Source of the DNA: Candidatus Nomurabacteria bacterium
GTDB lineage: Bacteria > Patescibacteriota > Minisyncoccia > Phycocordibacterales > UBA918
Length of the DNA: 64,000 nucleotides
Direction: 5' to 3'
Assembly (NCBI GenBank): GCA_020632035.1
Contig: JACKGG010000005.1
Coordinates: 4,855-68,854 of the forward strand
The translations under genes were made by a program, and so were the position numbers. Shown piece by piece: positions 2,851-33,816 of this stretch. Numbering within the stretch: position 1 is the first letter of the stretch; the number at the start of each line of letters is the position of its first letter. The notes beneath the pieces are model-generated. The model searched no databases and was not told the origin of the DNA. It saw only the letters and a program-made list of their open reading frames with translations.

Positions 2851-3357
2851 ATGAAAAAGCAGGATTTGGTTAGTATATTAATTACCTTTGCCTTTGGGGT
2901 GTTTGGTGGGGGATATCTTTACCTGACTGGCTTTGCGCCGCTTGAAAATAAAGTTTCCTTGCCTGACGTGGTGGCTTTGTCTCAGTTCGTGCTCGTTAGC
3001 GATACTTATGGTGGCTGTAGAGACAATTGTCCGTCTTTCCAAGTGGTTAACGATGGTTCGTATCGTTACTTGTATGTACCAACTGATGGCACTGGGCAAG
3101 TAGTGAGACAAGGAACATTACCTTCATCTATCCAGCGCAAACTAAAAAGTGTTCTTGATCCTGAGAAGCTTTCGGCACAGGCCGAATCGATCCAGCCAAC
3201 TTCTTGCAACTCGTTTTCGGATGGAGTTGACGTGGTCTACGACATCACTTTGGCCGGAGAGCAGTATATTTTAGATTCATGTGGTACCGCTGTAGATAGG
3301 AATAGTGAGCTTTGGTTGACTCTTCGAAGTATCTGGGAGTATTTGCAAACACTTTGA
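2851..3357 (+). CDS. hypothetical secreted/membrane-anchored protein
   Basis: The ORF track gives 2797-3357. The internal Met at 2851 (MKKQDLVSILITFAFGVFGGGYLYL...) gives a clean signal/anchor helix. Four Cys residues suggest an extracytoplasmic location. Confidence 0.45.
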   Translation: MKKQDLVSILITFAFGVFGGGYLYLTGFAPLENKVSLPDVVALSQFVLVSDTYGGCRDNCPSFQVVNDGSYRYLYVPTDGTGQVVRQGTLPSSIQRKLKSVLDPEKLSAQAESIQPTSCNSFSDGVDVVYDITLAGEQYILDSCGTAVDRNSELWLTLRSIWEYLQTL

Positions 3358-5034: not shown

Positions 5035-6816
5035 ATGTCACAAGAAATTAGAAATATCGCTATAATCGCTCACGTAGACCATGGTAAGACTACTCTTACT
5101 GACGGTCTCATGGAATTCACTGGTTCTCGTGAAGGCGACGCCTCAATGGATAATAATGCGCTTGAACAAGAGCGTGGTATCACTATCTACGCGAAAAATA
5201 CTTCTGTGACGTACAAAGATACTAAGATCAATATCGTTGATACTCCTGGTCACGCCGACTTTGGTTCTGAAGTAGAACGAGTGCTTCGATCGATTGATTC
5301 TGTACTTTTAGTGGTTGATGCCCAAGAAGGCCCAATGCCACAAACCCGTTTTGTACTTAAAAAGTCTCTAGAACTTGGTTTGAAGCCGATTGTGGTTATT
5401 AATAAGATAGACAAGCCAGCCGCAGACCCGGATCATTGTGAAGAGCTGGTGCTAGAACTTTTTCTAGAGCTTGGAGCCTCAGATGAGCAGTCTAGCTTTC
5501 CTGTAGTGTACGCAATTGGACGTGACGGCGTAGCTAAGCGCAAGATGGAAGATGAGTTGGTAGACTTGTCACCGGTATTGGATACTGTTCTAGAACATGT
5601 TGCACCTGCTAAGGGTTATGTGGAAGATGAAGCATTGCGGGCTCAAGTATTCAACCTTGGTTATGACAACTTTCTCGGTAGACTAGCTGTTGCTCGAATT
5701 TACGATGGTAAAATTGCAAAAGGTCAACAAGTTTTGATAAAAGCAGAAGGTGAAGAAATCAAAAAAGGTAAAGTCGTTAAACTTTCTGGTTATGAAGGTG
5801 TCCGTCAGGTAGAAATAAACGAAGCTTTTGCCGGAGACATTGTCTTGATTGCTGGATTAGAAGACATAAATATTGGTGAAACTATCACCGACAAAGAGAA
5901 TGCCGAAATTCTTCCAGCAATTTCAGTTGATGAACCTACTGTAGGAATGCAGTTTTTAGTAAACTCGTCACCATTTGCTGGTCGAGAAGGGAAGTACGTT
6001 ACCTCTCGTCAAATTGGGGAACGTCTTGAAAAAGAAATGGAAATTAACGTAGGACTTCAAGTAGAGCGCCAAGGTGACGTCTACGATGTGTACGGACGCG
6101 GGGAAATGCACATTGCAATCCTATTAGAAAATATGCGCCGAGAAGGCTATGAACTCTCTGTTTCTCAGCCGAAAGTAATTATTAAGGAAATTGATGGTGT
6201 AAAGTCAGAACCGTTTGAAGAAGTCACCATCGATATTCCTTCAGAGTTTCAGGGTCCTGTTATTGAACGTCTATCAAATCGAGGTTTCATTATGCAAAAC
6301 ATGGTACCGCACGAAAACCAAGTTCGACTATTATTTGAAGGACCAACTAGAGGACTCCTAGGTTATAAAAACCAGTTTATTATTGACACAAAAGGGGAAG
6401 GTATTCTAGCTTCACGCTTCATAGAGTTTCGAAAATACGTTGGCGAAATCAAAAAACGGCAAGTTGGTTCAATGATTTCAATGGCGACAGGAAAAGCACT
6501 TGGTTTCTCACTTTTTGGCCTACAAGACCGAGGAGAGTTATACATTGGAGCTGGAGAAGAGGTGTACGAAGGAATGGTAATTGGTAATACTAGTAAGGGT
6601 GAGGAAATGACAGTTAATCCAACCAAAGGAAAGCAACTTACAAACGTACGGGCCTCTGGTAGCGATGATGCTATAAACTTAGTGCCACACCGACCTCTTT
6701 CGATTGAAATTGGTCTCGAAATTATGCAGATTGATGAATACTTAGAAGTTTGTCCAAAATCAATCAGATTGCGGAAGCAAGGCTTAAAAGAGAGCGATAG
6801 AAAGAAAACGAAGTAA
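5035..6816 (+). CDS. typA: translational GTPase TypA/BipA
   Basis: '[19 protein letters not shown]' is the G1 motif and 'DTPGHADF' is G3. The length and C-terminal domain are TypA-like. The start was moved from the track's 4945 to the Met at 5035 to match the canonical N-terminus. Confidence 0.9.
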
Positions 6817-22472: not shown

Positions 22473-22602
22473 AATTTAAGTTTTAGCCGCCAAAGAGGCA
22501 CGAATTTTATTATGTTACTTTGCTTACTATACAACAGGATAGTTATAGAGTATAACTTCCGCATGTTCTTTTTAGTAATTTTCAGACATGAAGGGGTGTG
22601 AA

Positions 22603-29507: not shown

Positions 29508-31412
29508 ATGGATTTCGTGATAAAACAACGAGCGCTGTTTTATGCTTTGCTCCTAGCTTTTTTAGGAAGTCTATTTTTTGTCAACTCAGATTTTGCTGAA
29601 GCTGTGAATGTTGTTGAGTACAAAGACGTTATATCTGATTCCGGTCCATCAGAGCAATCCAATCATAGTCTATCGTTTGTCTTGAATACTAATCTTTCGC
29701 CTGGAAGTACATTTGAGGTCACTCCACCAGATGGGTTTAGCGTTATTTCTGCTGCCACTTTTGCAGAAAGAAACGTAGAGTTAGTTATCGATGGTATACC
29801 AAGAGTAGCCAGTGATGCGCTTGCTCCTGGAGTCGATATGGTAGAAATTACTCCAGGTTCACCTGGCTTTATTAAGTACACCCTAGCGCCAGATGCTTCT
29901 GTGAGTTCTGGCAGTCAAATCGAATTCAAGATCGGTAACCATACTTCTAATTCTCAGCAAATAGGAACAGCCTACAGTTCGACAACTGGTACGACCACTG
30001 TACCAGCAGACATAGAGCCAATTATTAACTCATCAGATTTAGGGAAACACGATGTCCAGTTAGAGATATATGACGGTAGCTTAGTTGCCAACGCTGACTT
30101 TGTAGTTTTCTTAGTTGAAAAAGTGCAAATGCCAGGTATTGATACTACTGAAGAAATTCCTCCATTTCGTTTTAATCCGGCTCCAACTAGTACAGTAGGA
30201 GGAACTACGCTCAGTGTAGAAATATCTCTGGAAACAGATGAGTTTGCAATTTGTCGGTATAGCACTAGTCCAGATGTTGCTTACGTTGCAATGACCAATA
30301 CTTTCAGTAATACTGGTTTAATCTACCACTCAACTGTGGTGACGGTCACTCCAAGTACAGTCGCTTCATATTATGTAAGATGTATCGATGATGAAGGCAA
30401 CTTCAACATAGACGACTTCTTAATACAGTTTACTGTTAATGATACTCCAACCGGGACTTCAAACGAAGAGGGTGACGTAGACGGAGATGGTACTGGTACT
30501 GGGAATTCTGGTAGTGGGGATGGTTCTGGTGGAGGAGGTACATCTGGTGCTTCAGATGGTGTAGAACCATTGGCAGGGGGTAGTACTGGTTCTGGTGGTT
30601 CTGGCGGTGGCGGGGGAGGCGGCTCAGGCGGTAGTTCTGGTAGTTCAGGAGGAGGAGGTTTTGAGAGTACTGATGCTCCATACAGAAGTGGTGACGGTCG
30701 GGTAGAAATCTCTGGCTACGCTTATCCAAACAGTTCGGTCACGATTTTGGTTGACGGTAACATTTTTTCGACAGTGAAAGCAAATAGCTCTGGCTCTTAC
30801 TCTGAGACTCTAGATGAAATTGCTAGAGGTGTATACACCTTTGGTGTGTACGCCGACGATTCTAATAGAGTACGGTCTTCTACTTTTAGCACCTCGTTCA
30901 CTGTCACAGGAGCGCGGACCTCTGCTTTGAGTAACATCAATGTCTCACCATCAATCTCAGTAGACCCAGACCCGGTTAATCCTGGCCAGACGCTAACCTT
31001 GTCTGGTTACGCATTACCAAATTCAGTTGTCACTATAGAAAACGGTCGACTAAATCGAGCTAGTAGTCAAACATTGTCTGCAAATTCTGATTCAAGTGGT
31101 AAGTGGAGTACAATCATACCAACCAATGGATTTACAGTTGATACATATCAAGTTAGAGCCAAATCACAGCAGGACGGAGGCCAAACAACTCAGTTTTCGA
31201 AGTATACTTTTTATGGAGTCGGCAAGTCAGCTGATGTCCCACTAAACGCCGACTTAAATAGAGATGGTAAGGTTAACCTTATAGACTTTTCTATCTTGCT
31301 ATTCTGGTGGGGTGGAACTGGTGGTGACTCAGACCCGCCTGCCGATATAAACCTAGATGGTAACGTGAGTCTAACCGACTTCTCGATCCTTCTCTTCAAC
31401 TGGACTGGATAA
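29508..31412 (+). CDS. secreted multi-domain protein with Gly/Ser-rich linker, Ig-like repeats and C-terminal dockerin
   Basis: Signal peptide. An about 60-aa Gly/Ser linker sits near 30470-30670. The C-terminal tandem calcium-binding repeats 'ADLNRDGKVNLIDFSILL' and 'ADINLDGNVSLTDFSILL' (about 31231-31409) form a type-I dockerin signature. Confidence 0.65.
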   Translation: MDFVIKQRALFYALLLAFLGSLFFVNSDFAEAVNVVEYKDVISDSGPSEQSNHSLSFVLNTNLSPGSTFEVTPPDGFSVISAATFAERNVELVIDGIPRVASDALAPGVDMVEITPGSPGFIKYTLAPDASVSSGSQIEFKIGNHTSNSQQIGTAYSSTTGTTTVPADIEPIINSSDLGKHDVQLEIYDGSLVANADFVVFLVEKVQMPGIDTTEEIPPFRFNPAPTSTVGGTTLSVEISLETDEFAICRYSTSPDVAYVAMTNTFSNTGLIYHSTVVTVTPSTVASYYVRCIDDEGNFNIDDFLIQFTVNDTPTGTSNEEGDVDGDGTGTGNSGSGDGSGGGGTSGASDGVEPLAGGSTGSGGSGGGGGGGSGGSSGSSGGGGFESTDAPYRSGDGRVEISGYAYPNSSVTILVDGNIFSTVKANSSGSYSETLDEIARGVYTFGVYADDSNRVRSSTFSTSFTVTGARTSALSNINVSPSISVDPDPVNPGQTLTLSGYALPNSVVTIENGRLNRASSQTLSANSDSSGKWSTIIPTNGFTVDTYQVRAKSQQDGGQTTQFSKYTFYGVGKSADVPLNADLNRDGKVNLIDFSILLFWWGGTGGDSDPPADINLDGNVSLTDFSILLFNWTG

Positions 31413-31436
31413 AACCTGACTAGTGTCAGGTTTTAT
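31412..31436 (+). terminator. rho-independent terminator
   Basis: AAACCTGAC-TAGT-GTCAGGTTT followed by TAT. Its 3' half is the first bases of the tandem repeat unit. Confidence 0.55.
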
Positions 31437-31708
31437 CTGGTGCCGACGAGAGTCGGCAATCACCGTTGTGAGGCTTAATGCCGAACAGGTGATAGGAGGG
31501 CACCAACTCTGTCCTCGGCACTTACGCTGCGAATTGGCTATGTTCGTCCAGATTGACTAGTGTCAGGTTTTATCTGGTGCCGACGAGAGTCGGCAATCAC
31601 CGTTGTGAGGCTTAATGCCGAACAGGTGATAGGAGGGCACCAACTCTGTCCTCGGCACTTACGCTGCGAATTGGCTATGTTCGTCCAGATTGACTAGTGT
31701 CAGGTTTT
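31418..31708 (+). repeat. 137-bp GC-rich unit in exact tandem, 2.1 copies
   Basis: Unit starts are at 31418, 31555 and 31692, and the third copy ends after about 17 bp. The first two full units look identical by eye. The unit has no ORF longer than 6 codons and contains several internal helices (see findings). Confidence 0.8.
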
Positions 31709-31733
31709 ATCATAATTTTAGTTCTGCGTAATC

Positions 31734-31748
31734 TGTGGGTAACCCACA
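31734..31748 (+). promoter_or_regulatory. perfect palindrome TGTGGGTAACCCACA upstream of hsp20
   Basis: The 6-bp arms are TGTGGG/CCCACA. It lies 21 nt upstream of the TATAAT at 31769-31774. Confidence 0.3.
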
Positions 31749-31782
31749 ATTAAACTTAAGCTTCTAAGTATAATGTTAAGGT

Positions 31783-32265
31783 ATGTCGTTCTTGCAAAGA
31801 TTGAAAGGTCGGGGAGTTAGGAGTGGCGAAGCTTCTCTTTTGTCAGACGCCGAAGAAACGGCGGTAGATAAAGTAGCTCAATTGCACGTTGATGTTTTTC
31901 AAACTGAACGCATGATTGTTGTGTATGCACAATCAGCTGGAGCTGATATGAATGACGTTCATGTCTCGATTGAAGGAGATGCAGATATTGTTCTTATCGA
32001 AGGTAAAAGAATCAGGCCAGAATATATTGTTTTCCCTAAAAAGAAAGTCAGTGGATCTTTCGTGGCAGAAGAATGTATTTGGGGAGATTTTTACCGAAGG
32101 ATTATCTTGCCTGAAAGTGTAAATATAGATAAAGCTGAAGCAAAAATAAAAAATGGTGTTCTGATCCTCGTCCTGCCACTTTTGAAGCCAAGTGAAAAAG
32201 AAAAAGTTCAGTTAAAAGTTATGGGAGGTAAAGGCATTACTAAGCCTAGGCAGAAGCCAAATTAG
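31783..32265 (+). CDS. Hsp20/alpha-crystallin family small heat-shock protein
   Basis: 160 aa. The alpha-crystallin domain motifs are 'VHVSIEGDADIVLIEGKR' and 'GSFVAEECIWGDFYRRIILPESVNIDKAEAKIKNGVLILVLPL'. Confidence 0.8.
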   Translation: MSFLQRLKGRGVRSGEASLLSDAEETAVDKVAQLHVDVFQTERMIVVYAQSAGADMNDVHVSIEGDADIVLIEGKRIRPEYIVFPKKKVSGSFVAEECIWGDFYRRIILPESVNIDKAEAKIKNGVLILVLPLLKPSEKEKVQLKVMGGKGITKPRQKPN

Positions 32266-32286: not shown

Positions 32287-33816
32287 ATGTTGTACCTTTT
32301 AAATAAAATTTCAAAACTAACACTAGCAGTCGGATTTACTGTAGCTTTGTTTCTGTCTCTATTTTCTTATACATATGCAGCGGATTTATCAATTTCTCCA
32401 AGCACAGGCTCTTACACTGTAGGTCAAACTTTCACTGCTACCATACGAGCAATCCCAAATGGTGACAGTGTAAACGCAGTTGAGGCAACTTTATCTTACA
32501 ACCCTGCCGTTTTGTCGGTAGTGAGTGTTAGTAAGACTGGTTCAGCTTTCTCGCTTTGGACTACAGAACCAACGTTTTCAAACTCGGCTGGCACTATTCA
32601 GTTCGGAGGTGGTAGTCCGACACCATTTACATCTTCCTCAAACTTGTTGAGCGTCACTTTCAGAACAGTTGCAGAAGGTACAGGATCAATAAAGTTTACA
32701 GAAGCATCAGTTTTAGCCGCAGATGGTAGAGGAACTGATGTATATAAAGCAGCAACAGACGGATCTTTTACGGTTACAGCCGGCACCGCTCCAACACCAA
32801 CTCCAACACCAACTCCTACTCCGACAGACACTGCAGAAGAATCAGATAATGAAGAAGCAATTATCTTTGGTGATCCTCCAAGGCAACCAGAAGTAGGTTC
32901 CCAGACTTTCCTTGATCCCGAAATTTGGTACAACCGAACAGATGGTGTCTTTACTTGGACCCTACCGTTTGATGTTAGTGCCGTAGCAGTGGAAATCTCA
33001 GATGACCCTAATAACATTCCTCAAGACCATGAAGATTCGATTATTGATCCACCGGTTGAAGAATTTTCTGTCAGTAAAGAAACTGTTAAGGATGGAGTAC
33101 AGTACATCAGTGTTAACTTTCAAAACCAAGTCGGTTGGGGAGCAGTTACAAACAGAAAAGTTCAAATCGATACAACTCCACCCGAACCTTTTGCAATAAA
33201 TGTTCAGGCTGGAAATTCGCCAACCTCATTCCCGCTACTAAAGTTTGAAGCTACTGACAAAACTTCAGGTATCGAGTATTACGACATGACGATTGCTGAT
33301 AAGGAACCATTACGGGTTACACCAGATGAGGCTAGATTGGGTTACTTACTAAAAGAACTTGAAGATGGTACTTATACTGTCAAAGTCATTGCTACTGACA
33401 GGGCAGGAAACGTTAGAGAAAGTAGTGTGGCTGTCCTTATAACTGCTGGTTGGATTAAGCCAGTTGAAAATCTAGACGAAGGTTCATTCTGGGACTTTAT
33501 CACAGCTGTCAACCTGTTTATTTTCTTCCTAGTTGTTATAATCTTATTGCAGATAGTATACTTCTGGTATGAGCATAAACGTCTAAAAGAAAAAGATGAA
33601 AAGTTGAGAAGAGAGACTCGAGAAATTCAAGATCAGATGGAAAAGATATTCTCTGCTTTAAGGGACGAAATATACGACCAGATAAACACAATAACAAAAA
33701 GGAAAAGAATGTCAGTCAAAGAAAAGGAGGCGGTTGAACAACTTACACAAGCGCTTGAAGTGTCAGAGACCTTGATTGAGAAGGAAATCAATGACGTAAA
33801 GACAATTTTGAAGTAA
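32287..33816 (+). CDS. membrane-anchored cohesin-domain protein (scaffoldin-like) with TP-repeat linker and cytoplasmic coiled-coil tail
   Basis: Signal peptide. The cohesin-like beta-sandwich is 'ADLSISPSTGSYTVGQTFTATIRAIPNGDSVNAVEATLSYNPAVLSVVSV...IKFTEASVLAADG' (about 32380-32785). A (TP)n linker follows. The TM helix is 'FITAVNLFIFFLVVIILLQIVYFWY', and a charged coiled coil (KEKDEKLRRETREIQDQMEK...) follows it. Confidence 0.6.
   Translation: MLYLLNKISKLTLAVGFTVALFLSLFSYTYAADLSISPSTGSYTVGQTFTATIRAIPNGDSVNAVEATLSYNPAVLSVVSVSKTGSAFSLWTTEPTFSNSAGTIQFGGGSPTPFTSSSNLLSVTFRTVAEGTGSIKFTEASVLAADGRGTDVYKAATDGSFTVTAGTAPTPTPTPTPTPTDTAEESDNEEAIIFGDPPRQPEVGSQTFLDPEIWYNRTDGVFTWTLPFDVSAVAVEISDDPNNIPQDHEDSIIDPPVEEFSVSKETVKDGVQYISVNFQNQVGWGAVTNRKVQIDTTPPEPFAINVQAGNSPTSFPLLKFEATDKTSGIEYYDMTIADKEPLRVTPDEARLGYLLKELEDGTYTVKVIATDRAGNVRESSVAVLITAGWIKPVENLDEGSFWDFITAVNLFIFFLVVIILLQIVYFWYEHKRLKEKDEKLRRETREIQDQMEKIFSALRDEIYDQINTITKRKRMSVKEKEAVEQLTQALEVSETLIEKEINDVKTILK

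Follow-up and report, generated by a model that had tools for sequence, protein, structure and literature searches.

Small hairpin-rich repeats, usually in tandem, directly after dockerin-type genes in a few Paceibacteria

The spacer between a dockerin-type surface-protein gene and hsp20 in the 64,000-nt stretch of DNA analysed here (the window) carries a 137-nt unit from a previously uncatalogued repeat family. The family consists of small hairpin-rich non-coding elements, usually in tandem, that lie directly after dockerin-type genes in a few Paceibacteria. Two helices of the unit, H1 and H2, are maintained through compensatory changes across five species. Our preferred reading, which we judge about equally apt to prove right or wrong, is that the 137-nt unit is a member of a small, structured, terminator-associated intergenic repeat family, with gene-end-linked spread and activity as + strand RNA.

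The unit is present 2.15 times at 100% identity, at 31417-31711 of the window. Tandem Repeats Finder reported a period of 137, 2.2 copies, 100% matches and zero indels over this interval (score 590). Direct comparison showed that copy 1 (31417-31553) equals copy 2 (31554-31690) base for base, and that the periodic identity continues for a further 21 bases to 31711. The initial annotation had described an exact tandem repeat of a 137-bp unit, and both methods agree with it; direct comparison moves the start of the array from 31418 to 31417 and lengthens the third, partial copy from about 17 bp to 21 nt. The array, on the + strand, is laid out as three 21-nt direct repeats around two identical 116-nt cores. 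Direct repeat copy 1 (31417..31437; TGACTAGTGTCAGGTTTTATC) comprises the top, right arm and T-run of a hairpin, and was defined, like copy 2 (31554..31574), from the sequence, Tandem Repeats Finder and direct comparison; copy 3 (31691..31711), delimited by direct comparison, is the end of the array. The core of unit 1 (31438..31553) is supported by its fold, by family covariation and by a covariance-model match of 63 bits, and its variable 3' part finishes in CCAGAT. The core of unit 2 (31575..31690) is the same according to Tandem Repeats Finder, direct comparison and the covariance model. Copy 3 is followed by ATAATTTT…, a flank that sits where element-free relatives (L014 and others) have a short spacer. 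A CRISPR array was rejected, since the two segments between the 21-nt repeats are identical and so are not differing spacers. The GC content of the unit is 52.6%, compared with 40.8% for the window, in line with the GC richness reported initially.

Immediately upstream lies the dockerin-type surface-protein gene of locus A (634 aa, 29508..31412, + strand), recognised by its open reading frame, by its translation, in which duplicated DxNxDGxVxxxDFSILLF repeats are seen, and by a faint Pfam Dockerin_1 match on an identical protein. A terminator-like hairpin spans its stop codon (31404..31441, + strand), with left arm ACTGGATAAAACCTGAC, loop TAGT and right arm GTCAGGTTTTATCTGGT. The last codons of the gene (…NWTG*) are the left arm, and each 21-nt direct repeat is the loop plus right arm; the first copy and the upstream gene share this hairpin, as had been proposed. 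When both strands were folded, the + strand formed 17 pairs, including two G·U, and the - strand only 13. The hairpin was not flagged by a simple terminator scan. An equivalent stop-codon hairpin is found in three homologous loci from other species (L065, L086 and L057), where the right arm covaries with the gene end, for example GGATAA/TTATCC versus GGGTTAA/TTAACCC.

The local helices listed in the initial annotation are all present on the + strand of the unit. H1 (31442-31457) is GCCGAC-GAGA-GTCGGC with a GAGA loop, and H2 (31460-31492) has the outer stem TCACC/GGTGA; both are supported by the fold and by family covariation. A purine tract, TAGGAGGG (31493-31500), follows and runs into H3 (31496-31516), a helix GAGGGCA/TGTCCTC seen in the fold, in which 31496-31502 pairs with 31510-31516. 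When a single unit was folded on the + strand together with its leading direct repeat, it was more stable than shuffles (z = -3.8); the other two + strand framings gave z from -3.0 to -3.1, and the - strand gave -3.1 and -2.9. The L065 unit, taken as a whole, was no more stable than its shuffles (z about 0).

Diverged homologues were found in the dockerin-to-hsp20 spacer of four other Paceibacteria species (L065, L086, L057 and L088); their nhmmer profile E-values range from 1e-12 to 1e-18. When only the window unit was used to build a covariance model, the model recovered, among others, L088 at 39.7 bits, L065 at 27.6 and the second L057 unit at 18.1. At least three of these four species carry two or more tandem units: L065 has two, with 52 nt in common before they diverge; the second unit of L057 is present in degenerate form; and L086 has at least 3, with a scaffold gap inside its array. 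The identical copies in the window had been read as a single recent local duplication, a view that fails against this recurrence of the tandem arrangement and the divergence of some of the units.

Across the family, a unit is about 115-140 nt long and starts right after the T-run and ATC(C) of the stop-codon hairpin of a dockerin-type gene; the L057 units begin after a T-run and AACCC. H1 is 6-7 bp long. H2 has a 5-bp outer stem, with a conserved GAUGU on its 5' side, ACCA or ACGA on its 3' side; its tip varies. Next comes a purine tract that resembles a Shine-Dalgarno sequence (AGGAGG or AGGUGG), and finally a variable 3' part, closed in the window, L065 and L086 by a small hairpin or a T-run and ATC(C). 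The short motifs GAUGU, ACCAGG and AGGAGG/AGGUGG persist between species with Hsp20 identities of only 67-80%.

RNAalifold, applied to three units aligned with MAFFT, found a poor consensus, with the helices mis-registered by MAFFT, and a hand alignment and a model-guided alignment were used instead. In the hand alignment, 53 of the 55 alignment cells were paired, compared with 16-26 when the partner strand was slid, and columns held up to 4 pair types. In the model-guided alignment, whose fitting to the model biases it toward pairing, 94.1% of cells were paired versus 69.5±3.3% in shuffles, none of 500 shuffles equalling the observed value; slid controls were 25-42% paired, and 9 pairs were altered on both sides. 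The set comprises five species and eight units, a thin basis for defining a family. The structure that had been claimed for the unit is evolutionarily maintained in two of its helices. All H1 and H2 pairs in the family alignment are Watson-Crick, so these helices do not separate RNA from single-stranded DNA, or the + strand from the - strand.

The distribution of the family is narrow and patchy. The nearest relatives of each carrier, whose hsp20 is 82-95% identical, have a short, empty spacer. The family covariance model found no further site in 939 kb from about 80 species (about 800 other spacers), and checks of locus B with the same model in three further species revealed no unit in the spacers. 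Sites numbered one or two per genome, the source species having two loci. A relaxed structural descriptor performed at noise level, with 41 matches in real loci versus 13 in shuffled ones, about two-thirds of the 41 being repeat reports of known units, and yielded no new members. L075, which has a hairpin-hairpin-purine layout after a terminator, was considered as a member and set aside as unsupported (covariance-model E about 4-5). In other species the same spacer holds other small repeat families, and the L075/L090 family is flanked by a duplicated gene 3' end. These cases show the spacer after dockerin-type genes to be a hotspot for several small repeat families.

Each unit contains a GTG-initiated open frame of 45 codons (31423-31560 and 31560-31697), where the initial annotation had seen no ORF longer than 6 codons. 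Its conclusion that the unit is non-coding stands, because the 45-aa product, looked up as a called gene, is not on record and because the frame is closed by a TGA in the L065 homologue. The suggested comparison of the unit with Rfam covariance models was made, and no family matched at or near its gathering score. At gathering thresholds, the sole match of Rfam 15 in the whole window was a tRNA at 2699; at E<=10, the interval 31300-31850 gave noise only, at 11-17 bits compared with cut-offs of 49-95, and nothing matched in the loci with homologues. ARAGORN found neither a tRNA nor a tmRNA over the array region, and the array had no BLAST match in phage or plasmid collections. Motif scans, exact and degenerate, turned up little: viral contigs, scanned twice, returned 0 matches both times. 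A motif scan of GTDB genomes likewise returned 0, indicating that the representative genome of the source species is either absent or without the unit; in JGI/ENA metagenomes the only match was L013. A scan with the sigma-70 consensus detected no promoter-like site within or ahead of the unit. Literature searches on CPR intergenic repeats and MITEs, and on the dockerin/Parcubacteria context, found nothing relevant, and the group IIC intron literature supplied general background only, on insertion after terminators.

A search for extra copies, as had been suggested, revealed a second locus in the source species in addition to the homologues in four other species. At this locus B, placed by synteny about 2 kb past the end of the window, the same unit lies behind a paralogous dockerin-type gene. 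In L013, the gene end is again of the dockerin type but is a different one; it is 83% identical to the locus-B gene of the relative JACKGI, and after it come the same hairpin, one full unit and the start of a second. Three contigs from other samples and assemblers (L094, L095 and L098) carry the 3' end of the unit, the direct repeat, 16 nt and then a different sequence that runs into a 390-aa surface-protein gene that is unrelated to hsp20. The identity between loci A and B extends into the last 36 nt of the coding sequence.

The junction between two units was also found in independent assemblies from other samples (L010/L012 and L013), indicating that it is not an artefact of the source assembly. 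The copy numbers are drawn from short-read assemblies and are uncertain: such assemblies break at the repeat, at two loci, and the locus-B unit confuses their graphs. One of them, L002 (MEGAHIT, k141), has one unit at locus A versus two in the window and in L010. The comparison of copy number across strains that had been proposed thus produced an apparent one-copy allele; the accompanying idea that a single copy would leave a trivial duplication does not follow, the element being non-trivial regardless. Break points of Logan k=31 contigs were withdrawn as proof of tandem copies at locus A, since the locus-B unit yields the same branch. The L012 scaffold joins the left side of A to the right side of B and was probably made chimeric by the repeat.

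Downstream of the array at locus A is hsp20 (160 aa, PF00011, 31783..32265, + strand), known from domain annotation and translation, and a neighbour of the array at this locus only. A putative hsp20 control region lies outside the element, at 31734..31774 on the + strand, and consists of the palindrome TGTGGGT-A-ACCCACA (31734-31748) and a TATAAT box (31769-31774), 8 nt ahead of the ATG. This site went unflagged in the sigma-70 consensus scan. Of about 35 upstream regions from relatives, most contain the TGTGGGTAA and TATAAT motifs, including those of relatives that have no element. The initial annotation had placed the best hsp20 promoter downstream of the repeat, and the putative operator and TATAAT box are indeed between the array and the ATG. 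The array adjoins a small heat-shock gene, has several hairpins and holds a Shine-Dalgarno-like AGGAGG paired inside a helix, all of which it has in common with ROSE and fourU thermometers and which could point to an RNA thermometer or leader controlling hsp20. We nevertheless reject this role as extremely improbable, because the putative promoter and operator are downstream of the array, which is therefore not in the 5' UTR; the distance of 8 nt from TATAAT to ATG in fact implies a leaderless hsp20 mRNA. From the start codon to the paired AGGAGG the distance is about 280 nt for unit 1 and about 145 nt for unit 2; unlike the paired tract of a ROSE or fourU element, this AGGAGG is not the hsp20 ribosome-binding site. 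Moreover, an identical unit precedes the unrelated 390-aa gene at locus B, and the hsp20 of most relatives is without any such element.

Several steps could produce the observed arrangement under the terminator-associated repeat reading that we prefer. The sequences show that a unit ending in a T-run and ATC(C) re-creates the sequence that precedes it, so units stack head to tail. Unequal recombination or slippage during replication, involving either whole units or the 21-nt direct repeats, would then shift the copy number; the apparent one- and two-copy alleles, and the identity of the units in the window compared with their divergence elsewhere, suggest this step. Within a species, the conserved dockerin-module end may let the unit pass between sites by gene conversion or homologous recombination, as suggested by the last 36 nt of coding sequence that the locus-B copy shares; alternatively, an enzyme may drive the spread. 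The patchy distribution implies that the element is dispensable, being gained and lost, and in this it resembles REP/BIME, ERIC, BOX and MIRU-type repeats. Any function of the units is probably at the RNA level, on the + strand, and we count toward this strand the G·U pairs that lengthen its stop-codon hairpin. Transcripts reading through from the dockerin-type gene would fold into H1, H2 and H3 and meet a further hairpin and U-tract at each unit end. We conjecture that the array might serve as a structured 3' end and a back-up terminator or insulator ahead of the promoter of the next gene. Against the preferred reading, transcription may end efficiently at the first hairpin and not reach the units, and a pure terminator or insulator role leaves the conserved GAUGU and purine tract unexplained.

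The main alternative, which we regard as possible though on balance unlikely, is an enzyme-driven, non-autonomous, site-specific mobile DNA element (REP/PATE, IS200/IS605 HUH-like, or another hairpin-recognising system). Its recognition hairpins would be H1 and H2 in single-stranded DNA, insertion would occur just 3' of ...TTTTATC(C) after the stop-codon hairpin, and the element's own end, being the same motif, would allow repeated insertion behind itself and hence tandem arrays. Strict site restriction combined with a patchy phylogenetic distribution fits such an element too. The empty sites in the nearest relatives, the identical copies at two loci of one species, the fixed start of units after a T-run and ATC(C) (window, L065 and L086) or AACCC (L057), the repetition of the target motif at the right end in the first three of these, the Watson-Crick-only hairpin changes and the presence of other small repeat families in the same spacer, one of them (L075/L090) with a duplicated gene 3' end, all favour it. 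However, the 20 window ORFs scanned (618-26389) yielded no transposase, integrase or reverse-transcriptase domain, and the surface-protein genes flanking the repeat are without such domains as far as annotated. The end hairpins are dissimilar, H1 and TGAC-TAGT-GTCA sharing only GAC/GTC, and in L086 and L065 the ends are unrelated. The terminal inverted repeat is only 6 nt (ATCTGG…CCAGAT closing the core), there are only one or two sites per genome with none in the roughly 800 other spacers, and the identity of A and B 36 nt into the coding sequence suits gene conversion better than transposition. A MITE was rejected on the 6-nt inverted repeats and on flanking direct repeats of 21 nt (window), about 20 (L065) and about 10 (L086), compared with a target-site duplication of 2-10 bp. 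The units could also be the footprint of a site-specific element homing to the stop-codon hairpin of CPR dockerin-type genes, or the A and B arrays could be recombination sites, but we think either improbable. Homing could recognise its target by base pairing, since changes in the gene end are matched in the right arm of the hairpin. As recombination sites, the two arrays, about 35 kb apart in direct orientation, may delete or amplify a block holding hsp20, a cohesin-domain protein and a giant surface protein of 7816 aa. The L012 scaffold has the join of A to B that such recombination would give.

We are similarly doubtful that the unit is a stand-alone sRNA gene or a 3' UTR-derived trans-acting RNA, duplicated for dosage and acting, for example, by protein or ribosome titration through an AGGAGG tract that is exposed or sequestered. 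The conservation of the structure and of GAUGU, ACCAGG and AGGAGG/AGGUGG while Hsp20 has diverged speaks for such an RNA, the ends of the units in the window, L065 and L086 resemble sRNA terminators (hairpin and U-run), and the + strand fold is somewhat more stable than that of the - strand. Against it are the lack of a promoter-like site in or before the unit in the scan, the zero Rfam family matches and the absence of the element from most relatives, the closest included, a pattern uncommon among functional sRNAs. If the repeat were no more than meaningless spacer DNA, trivially and recently duplicated on the spot, or an artefact of assembly, this would account for the 100% identity of the copies, for the apparent one-copy allele in L002 and for the breaks of short-read assemblies at the repeat. 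Such a reading is scarcely credible given the unit-to-unit junction in independent assemblies, the unit at a second locus, and the diverged homologues in four other species, with their compensatory changes and tandem arrays of their own.

Usual accounts of the small CPR/Patescibacteria genomes have them poor in repeats and mobile DNA, and to our knowledge almost nothing is known of their non-coding RNAs. The present work defines a family of structured elements by compensatory base changes, a strict positional rule and a variable tandem copy number. If transcribed, these elements would give Rfam a new RNA family and open a way into the 3'-end biology of an uncultured phylum; if mobile, they would be of unusual site specificity. 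The array may also mediate rearrangement of the 35-kb surface-protein region.

Several known systems share parts of this description. Type III toxin-antitoxin (ToxI-like) arrays also place a structured RNA-like unit in tandem upstream of a gene, but their units are about 36 nt rather than 137 nt, and the genes downstream of the present array encode Hsp20 (PF00011) and a cohesin-domain protein, not a ToxN/AbiE-type toxin. Group IIC introns insert just after intrinsic terminator hairpins, and the units in the window, L065, L086 and L057 are likewise directly 3' of a terminator-like hairpin. Unlike these introns, with their length of about 400 nt or more, the unit measures 116-137 nt, starts with TGGTGCC and has no GUGYG, no domain V/VI, no reverse transcriptase and no Rfam intron match. 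REP/BIME, ERIC and REP/PATE elements (RAYT or IS200/IS605 TnpA) are also hairpin repeats near terminators, with compensatory changes, patchy occurrence and sometimes arrays, and those derived from IS200/IS605 insert 3' of a fixed short motif that the right end of the element repeats, as in the window, L065 and L086. However, REPs are about 35 nt and very numerous, an ERIC consists of one imperfect palindrome, about 127 nt long, and in contrast to RAYT- or TnpA-mobilised elements the present unit has differing end hairpins; a scan of 20 window ORFs revealed no RAYT or TnpA gene. BOX elements of Streptococcus pneumoniae and MIRU/VNTR loci of Mycobacterium are small intergenic repeats with tandem modules. 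The present family is like them in a size of tens to about 150 nt, co-directional spacers, a tandem arrangement whose copy number apparently differs between strains, a stable predicted RNA fold, no protein and no transposase of its own, and the head-to-tail units within the spacer in the window, L065 and L086 are a VNTR-type feature. It has no sequence similarity to either, and MIRUs carry translation-coupling small ORFs whereas the present units do not. BOX and MIRU repeats are also dispersed at tens to hundreds of sites, whereas a genome with the present family has it at one site or two, in every case directly after the stop-codon hairpin of a dockerin-type gene.

The array occupies positions 31417–31711 on the + strand and was reported as one array by Tandem Repeats Finder (period 137, 2.2 copies, 100% matches, zero indels, score 590). 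By direct comparison, 31417–31553 and 31554–31690 are the same base for base, bearing out the two identical 137-bp copies described in the initial annotation, and the periodic identity continues for 21 bases rightward to 31711, with no leftward extension. The array thus starts at 31417 rather than 31418, and the third partial copy is 21 nt long, not about 17 bp. The unit is richer in G+C than its surroundings, as had been noted (52.6%, against 40.8% for the window), but it is not free of open frames longer than six codons: each copy contains a 45-codon GTG frame. A look-up of its product among recorded genes gave no match, and the frame is not conserved in homologues. The array is best read as three 21-nt direct repeats (TGACTAGTGTCAGGTTTTATC, + strand, starting at 31417, 31554 and 31691) around two identical 116-nt cores. 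The top, right arm and T-run of a terminator-like hairpin (31404–31441) make up the first direct repeat; this hairpin overlaps the stop codon of the upstream gene, whose end supplies the left arm (…ACT GGA TAA AACCTGAC). When both strands were folded, this stop-codon hairpin had 17 pairs on the + strand, two of them G·U, and 13 on the − strand. A single unit was more stable than shuffled sequences on the + strand (z = −3.8 when the leading direct repeat was included, −3.0 to −3.1 for the two other framings); z was −3.1 and −2.9 on the − strand.

At this locus (locus A), the array is flanked upstream by the gene for a 634-aa dockerin-type surface protein (29508–31412) and downstream by hsp20 (PF00011, 31783–32265). 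Beyond hsp20 lie a gene for a cohesin-domain protein and a giant ORF of 7816 aa (33932–57382, + strand), which has an 8128-aa orthologue at the same position in the relative JACKGI. The 509-aa cohesin-domain gene itself contains a perfect short tandem repeat (32789–32826, CTCCAACACCAA, 2.3 copies), which encodes a Pro-Thr linker (…TPTPTPTPTPTPT…). Elsewhere in the window, a 166-aa ORF at 22588–23088 matches Pfam Phage_30_3 (bacteriophage protein GP30.3, E = 2e−18) among otherwise cellular genes.

Judged by the relatives of its Hsp20, the organism belongs to the class Paceibacteria of the Patescibacteria. The dockerin-type gene and hsp20 are directly adjacent in most of about 80 related species, and in about a third of these the spacer is only 50–100 nt. 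The short spacer carries a conserved TGTGGGTAA motif, which recurs upstream of hsp20 in most of the related species' regions read, and a TATAAT box 8–9 nt before the ATG. In the window, TGTGGGTAA is the left half of a perfect palindrome, TGTGGGT-A-ACCCACA (31734–31748), and TATAAT (31769–31774) lies only 8 nt ahead of the hsp20 ATG. These positions suggest that hsp20 may be transcribed as an operator-controlled, leaderless mRNA. The array lies upstream of both signals.

Copy number and location were followed in contigs of the same species, chosen by an exactly identical encoded Hsp20 or dockerin protein. These assemblies show one unit between gene end and hsp20 in one contig (L002) and two in the L010/L012 scaffold; many same-species contigs end inside the repeat or at its edge. 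In L012, two units, the direct repeat and 16 nt are followed by different DNA (GAGACAGTC…, segment V), leading to a 390-aa gene absent from the window. A look-up of the 390-aa protein returned L094, which carries 53 nt of the unit's 3′ end, the direct repeat, TGGTGCCGACGAGAGT and V, so that the unit-to-V junction recurs in a second sample, processed by a different assembler. The closest sequenced relative has the 390-aa gene after a 369-aa dockerin-type paralogue, some 35 kb downstream from hsp20, with a giant gene, an ABC transporter and a 620-aa gene in between. The last gene of the window is the orthologue of this 620-aa gene (59% identity), which would put this second site (locus B) about 2 kb beyond the end of the window.

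The only metagenome match to a unit motif, L013, carries the 3′ end of a dockerin-type paralogue 83% identical to the relative's locus-B gene, followed by the stop-codon hairpin as at locus A, one complete unit and the beginning of a further one. The search for extra copies suggested in the initial annotation has thus found one: the unit is present at two loci in the source species (locus B in L013 and L094). Identity between the loci begins abruptly 36 nt before the stop codon, the genes upstream being only about 75–85% alike; the corresponding 36 nt of the relative's two paralogues differ at about 7 positions. The identical tract takes in the last 12 codons, which points to a putative gene conversion. 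In L012 (3708–4360; compare L094, 1–430) the left side of locus A (634-aa gene and two units) runs straight on into the right side of locus B (V and 390-aa gene), most simply because the repeat gave rise to a chimeric assembly; a real variant without some 35 kb (hsp20, cohesin-domain protein, giant ORF, ABC transporter and more) is possible. Two Logan contigs encoding the 390-aa protein (L095, L098) break exactly 30 nt ahead of the divergence point. Logan break points do not prove tandem copies at locus A, because locus B yields an identical branch. Outside the window, L010/L012 and L013 show directly one unit joined to the next.

A related element occupies the same spacer in four other species, whose Hsp20 is 67–73% identical to that of the window. 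In L065 the stop codon is followed by a hairpin (AAAAAAGCCC-CTGC-GGGCTTTTTT), ATCC, a 136-nt unit, and a second unit that shares its first 52 nt with unit 1 and then differs. L086 has a hairpin and at least three units (short ones of about 128 nt and one long, 219 nt, with an extra module), with a scaffold gap within the array; L057 has one unit and a degenerate second. L088 begins in the T-run and has one unit; any upstream hairpin would lie beyond the contig end. In the other three contigs the unit directly follows the hairpin's T-run and ATCC (AACCC in L057), and the hairpin's right arm forms the complement of the final coding bases (in L057, gene end GGG TTAA and arm TTAACCC). An nhmmer profile gave E values of 1e−12 to 1e−18 for these members and no match beyond them. 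A covariance model built from the window unit alone and our H1/H2 hairpin structure recovered all homologues: L088 scored 39.7 bits (E = 9e−9), L065 27.6 and the second L057 unit 18.1, with the second L065 unit, the L086 units and the first L057 unit at 8–12 bits. These eight units together served to build a second model, which found no further member in 939 kb from 85 sources (best other match V, 17.5 bits), nor any in the locus-B spacers of three additional species. In the species closest to each carrier by Hsp20 (82–95% identity), the spacer is short and empty or holds a different insert, so the element has a patchy phylogenetic distribution.

Counted from the T-run, helix positions are fixed in all five species, with H1 at nucleotides 11–12 and H2 at 28–30. 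H1 reads GCCGAC/GTCGGC, CCGAAC/GTGAGG (tandem G·A), CGCTGC/GCAGCG, CCAGTC/GACTGG and CTTTGC/GCAAAG, and the outer stem of H2 TCACC/GGTGA, CGCCC/GGGCG, CGGCC/GGCCG (two species) and TTTCC/GGAAA. In a hand alignment 53 of 55 cells were paired, against 16–26 when the 3′ partner was slid by 1–3 nt. In a model-guided alignment, which was fitted to the structure and is a small sample of eight units, 94.1% of cells were paired (shuffles 69.5 ± 3.3%, 0/500 reaching the observed value; slid controls 25–42%), both sides had changed at nine pairs covering 24 cells, and the covariation score was 0.46 (0.12 in shuffles). Conserved single-stranded features are GAUGU 5′ and ACCA/ACGA 3′ in the H2 interior, and an AGGAGG- or AGGUGG-like tract just past H2. 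In the window this purine tract pairs with the following pyrimidine stretch (H3); inspection and single-sequence folds indicate that it plausibly does so in L065, L086 and L088. The 3′ halves of units are poorly conserved, and the stability of the whole L065 unit is not unusual. All H1 and H2 pairs are Watson–Crick and hence uninformative as to strand; G·U pairing in the stop-codon hairpin and H3 favours the + strand.

At least three other small repeat families fill the dockerin-to-hsp20 spacer in other species (L022, L048, L059, L067, L072, L082 and L061; L038, L042, L045, L056, L075, L090, L030, L049 and L047; L070, L071, L073, L074, L077, L078 and L083). One carries GAGCAAACGAGCGTAGCGACTATTGCGAATTTTCGC and another GTTCCAGCGATTTTCCC…GGGAAAATCGGGAAC TAAATTCAGAATAGTC; sequence similar to the 3′ part of this second family is also present in the locus-B spacer of L107 (1914–2260). 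Miniature elements appear to have a hotspot in the spacer after dockerin-type genes. In L075 (~2870–3040) and L090 (~5740–5880), an insert of about 95 nt between imperfect 27-nt duplicates of the dockerin gene 3′ end (ATCATGATCTTTAATTGGACTGGATAA … ATCATGATCTTCAACTGGACGGGCTAA) looks like an element that may have integrated into the gene end, bringing a replacement end. A 35-nt module, GAGACAGTC-N5-GACTGTCGCAAGACCTTGCC, without an Rfam match, occurs in three contexts: segment V at locus B of the source species (L012, 4017–4053), inside the long unit of L086 (5705–5741; 92% identical to the former) and after an ABC-transporter gene in L082 (3440–3476), there with a compensatory C-G to A-U change and a C to U change preserving a G·U pair. 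At locus B the 390-aa surface-protein gene, outside the window, is preceded by TGTG(C/T)ATAAGT, akin to the motif upstream of hsp20, and by a leader, about 250 nt long and highly conserved between species (…CATCGTACAATGA…AAAGGAGGTAATCA…CACTTCAGCCGGGTGT…GGAGTGGAGACC…TAATACAACGTAGAGT; L012 4110–4358, L100 9760–10000, L103 90–330, L107 2270–2500). An Rfam search of the leader in L012 gave no match; it could be a cis-regulatory RNA or carry a small ORF.

Several known classes were weighed as identities for the unit. The Rfam check proposed initially came back empty for the unit and its homologues, and the array region contains no tRNA or tmRNA; a dedicated small RNA is improbable. A group IIC intron shares the position after a terminator hairpin, but the unit, much too short for one, has no GUGYG start or domain V. 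A type III antitoxin array was rejected as the downstream gene encodes Hsp20, and a CRISPR array as the 'spacers' between direct repeats are identical. An RNA thermometer for hsp20 is very unlikely: the array lies upstream of the palindrome and TATAAT, and the initial annotation was therefore right to drop it. We give as little credit to a trivial duplication or assembly artefact, which would account for the two identical copies; the junction recurs in other contigs and related units stand in other species.

Mobility driven by a site-specific enzyme deserves more weight, yet we consider it unlikely. The unit lacks the terminal inverted repeats and short target-site duplication of a classical MITE, and no similar sequence was found in phages, plasmids or viral contigs. 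An IS200/IS605-type miniature is possible, given that the same motif precedes the unit and ends it; however, the two end hairpins are dissimilar, and a Pfam scan of 20 window ORFs (618–26389) found no transposase, integrase or reverse-transcriptase domain.

The best explanation is a new family of small, structured, terminator-associated intergenic repeats, a package, including recombination or slippage, gene conversion and an RNA-level role, to which we give an even chance as a whole. In the window, L065 and L086, the unit's end repeats the hairpin top, T-run and ATC(C) that precede it, and units therefore stack head to tail. Copy number would then shift by unequal recombination or slippage; two copies are identical in the window, one allele is single, and the diverged tandem pairs of other species would be older. 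Within the species, the final 36 nt of coding sequence would have travelled with the element from one paralogous gene end to the other, which fits gene conversion. The scattered distribution and the other repeat families mark the spacer as a tolerant landing zone and the element as dispensable. An RNA-level role is, we conjecture, the array's most likely activity: it would give the dockerin-type transcript a structured 3′ end and back-up terminators ahead of the next promoter. The significance would be greater if the element homes by base pairing or mediates rearrangement of the 35-kb giant-protein block.

The family is not in Rfam and no description was found in the literature searched; it is a new family of a known kind of element. 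It is distinguished by unit helices backed by compensatory changes, by being confined strictly to the site after the stop-codon hairpin of dockerin-type genes, and by its occurrence in a phylum whose repeats and non-coding RNAs are barely charted; in general character, it resembles the REP/BIME, ERIC, BOX and MIRU elements.
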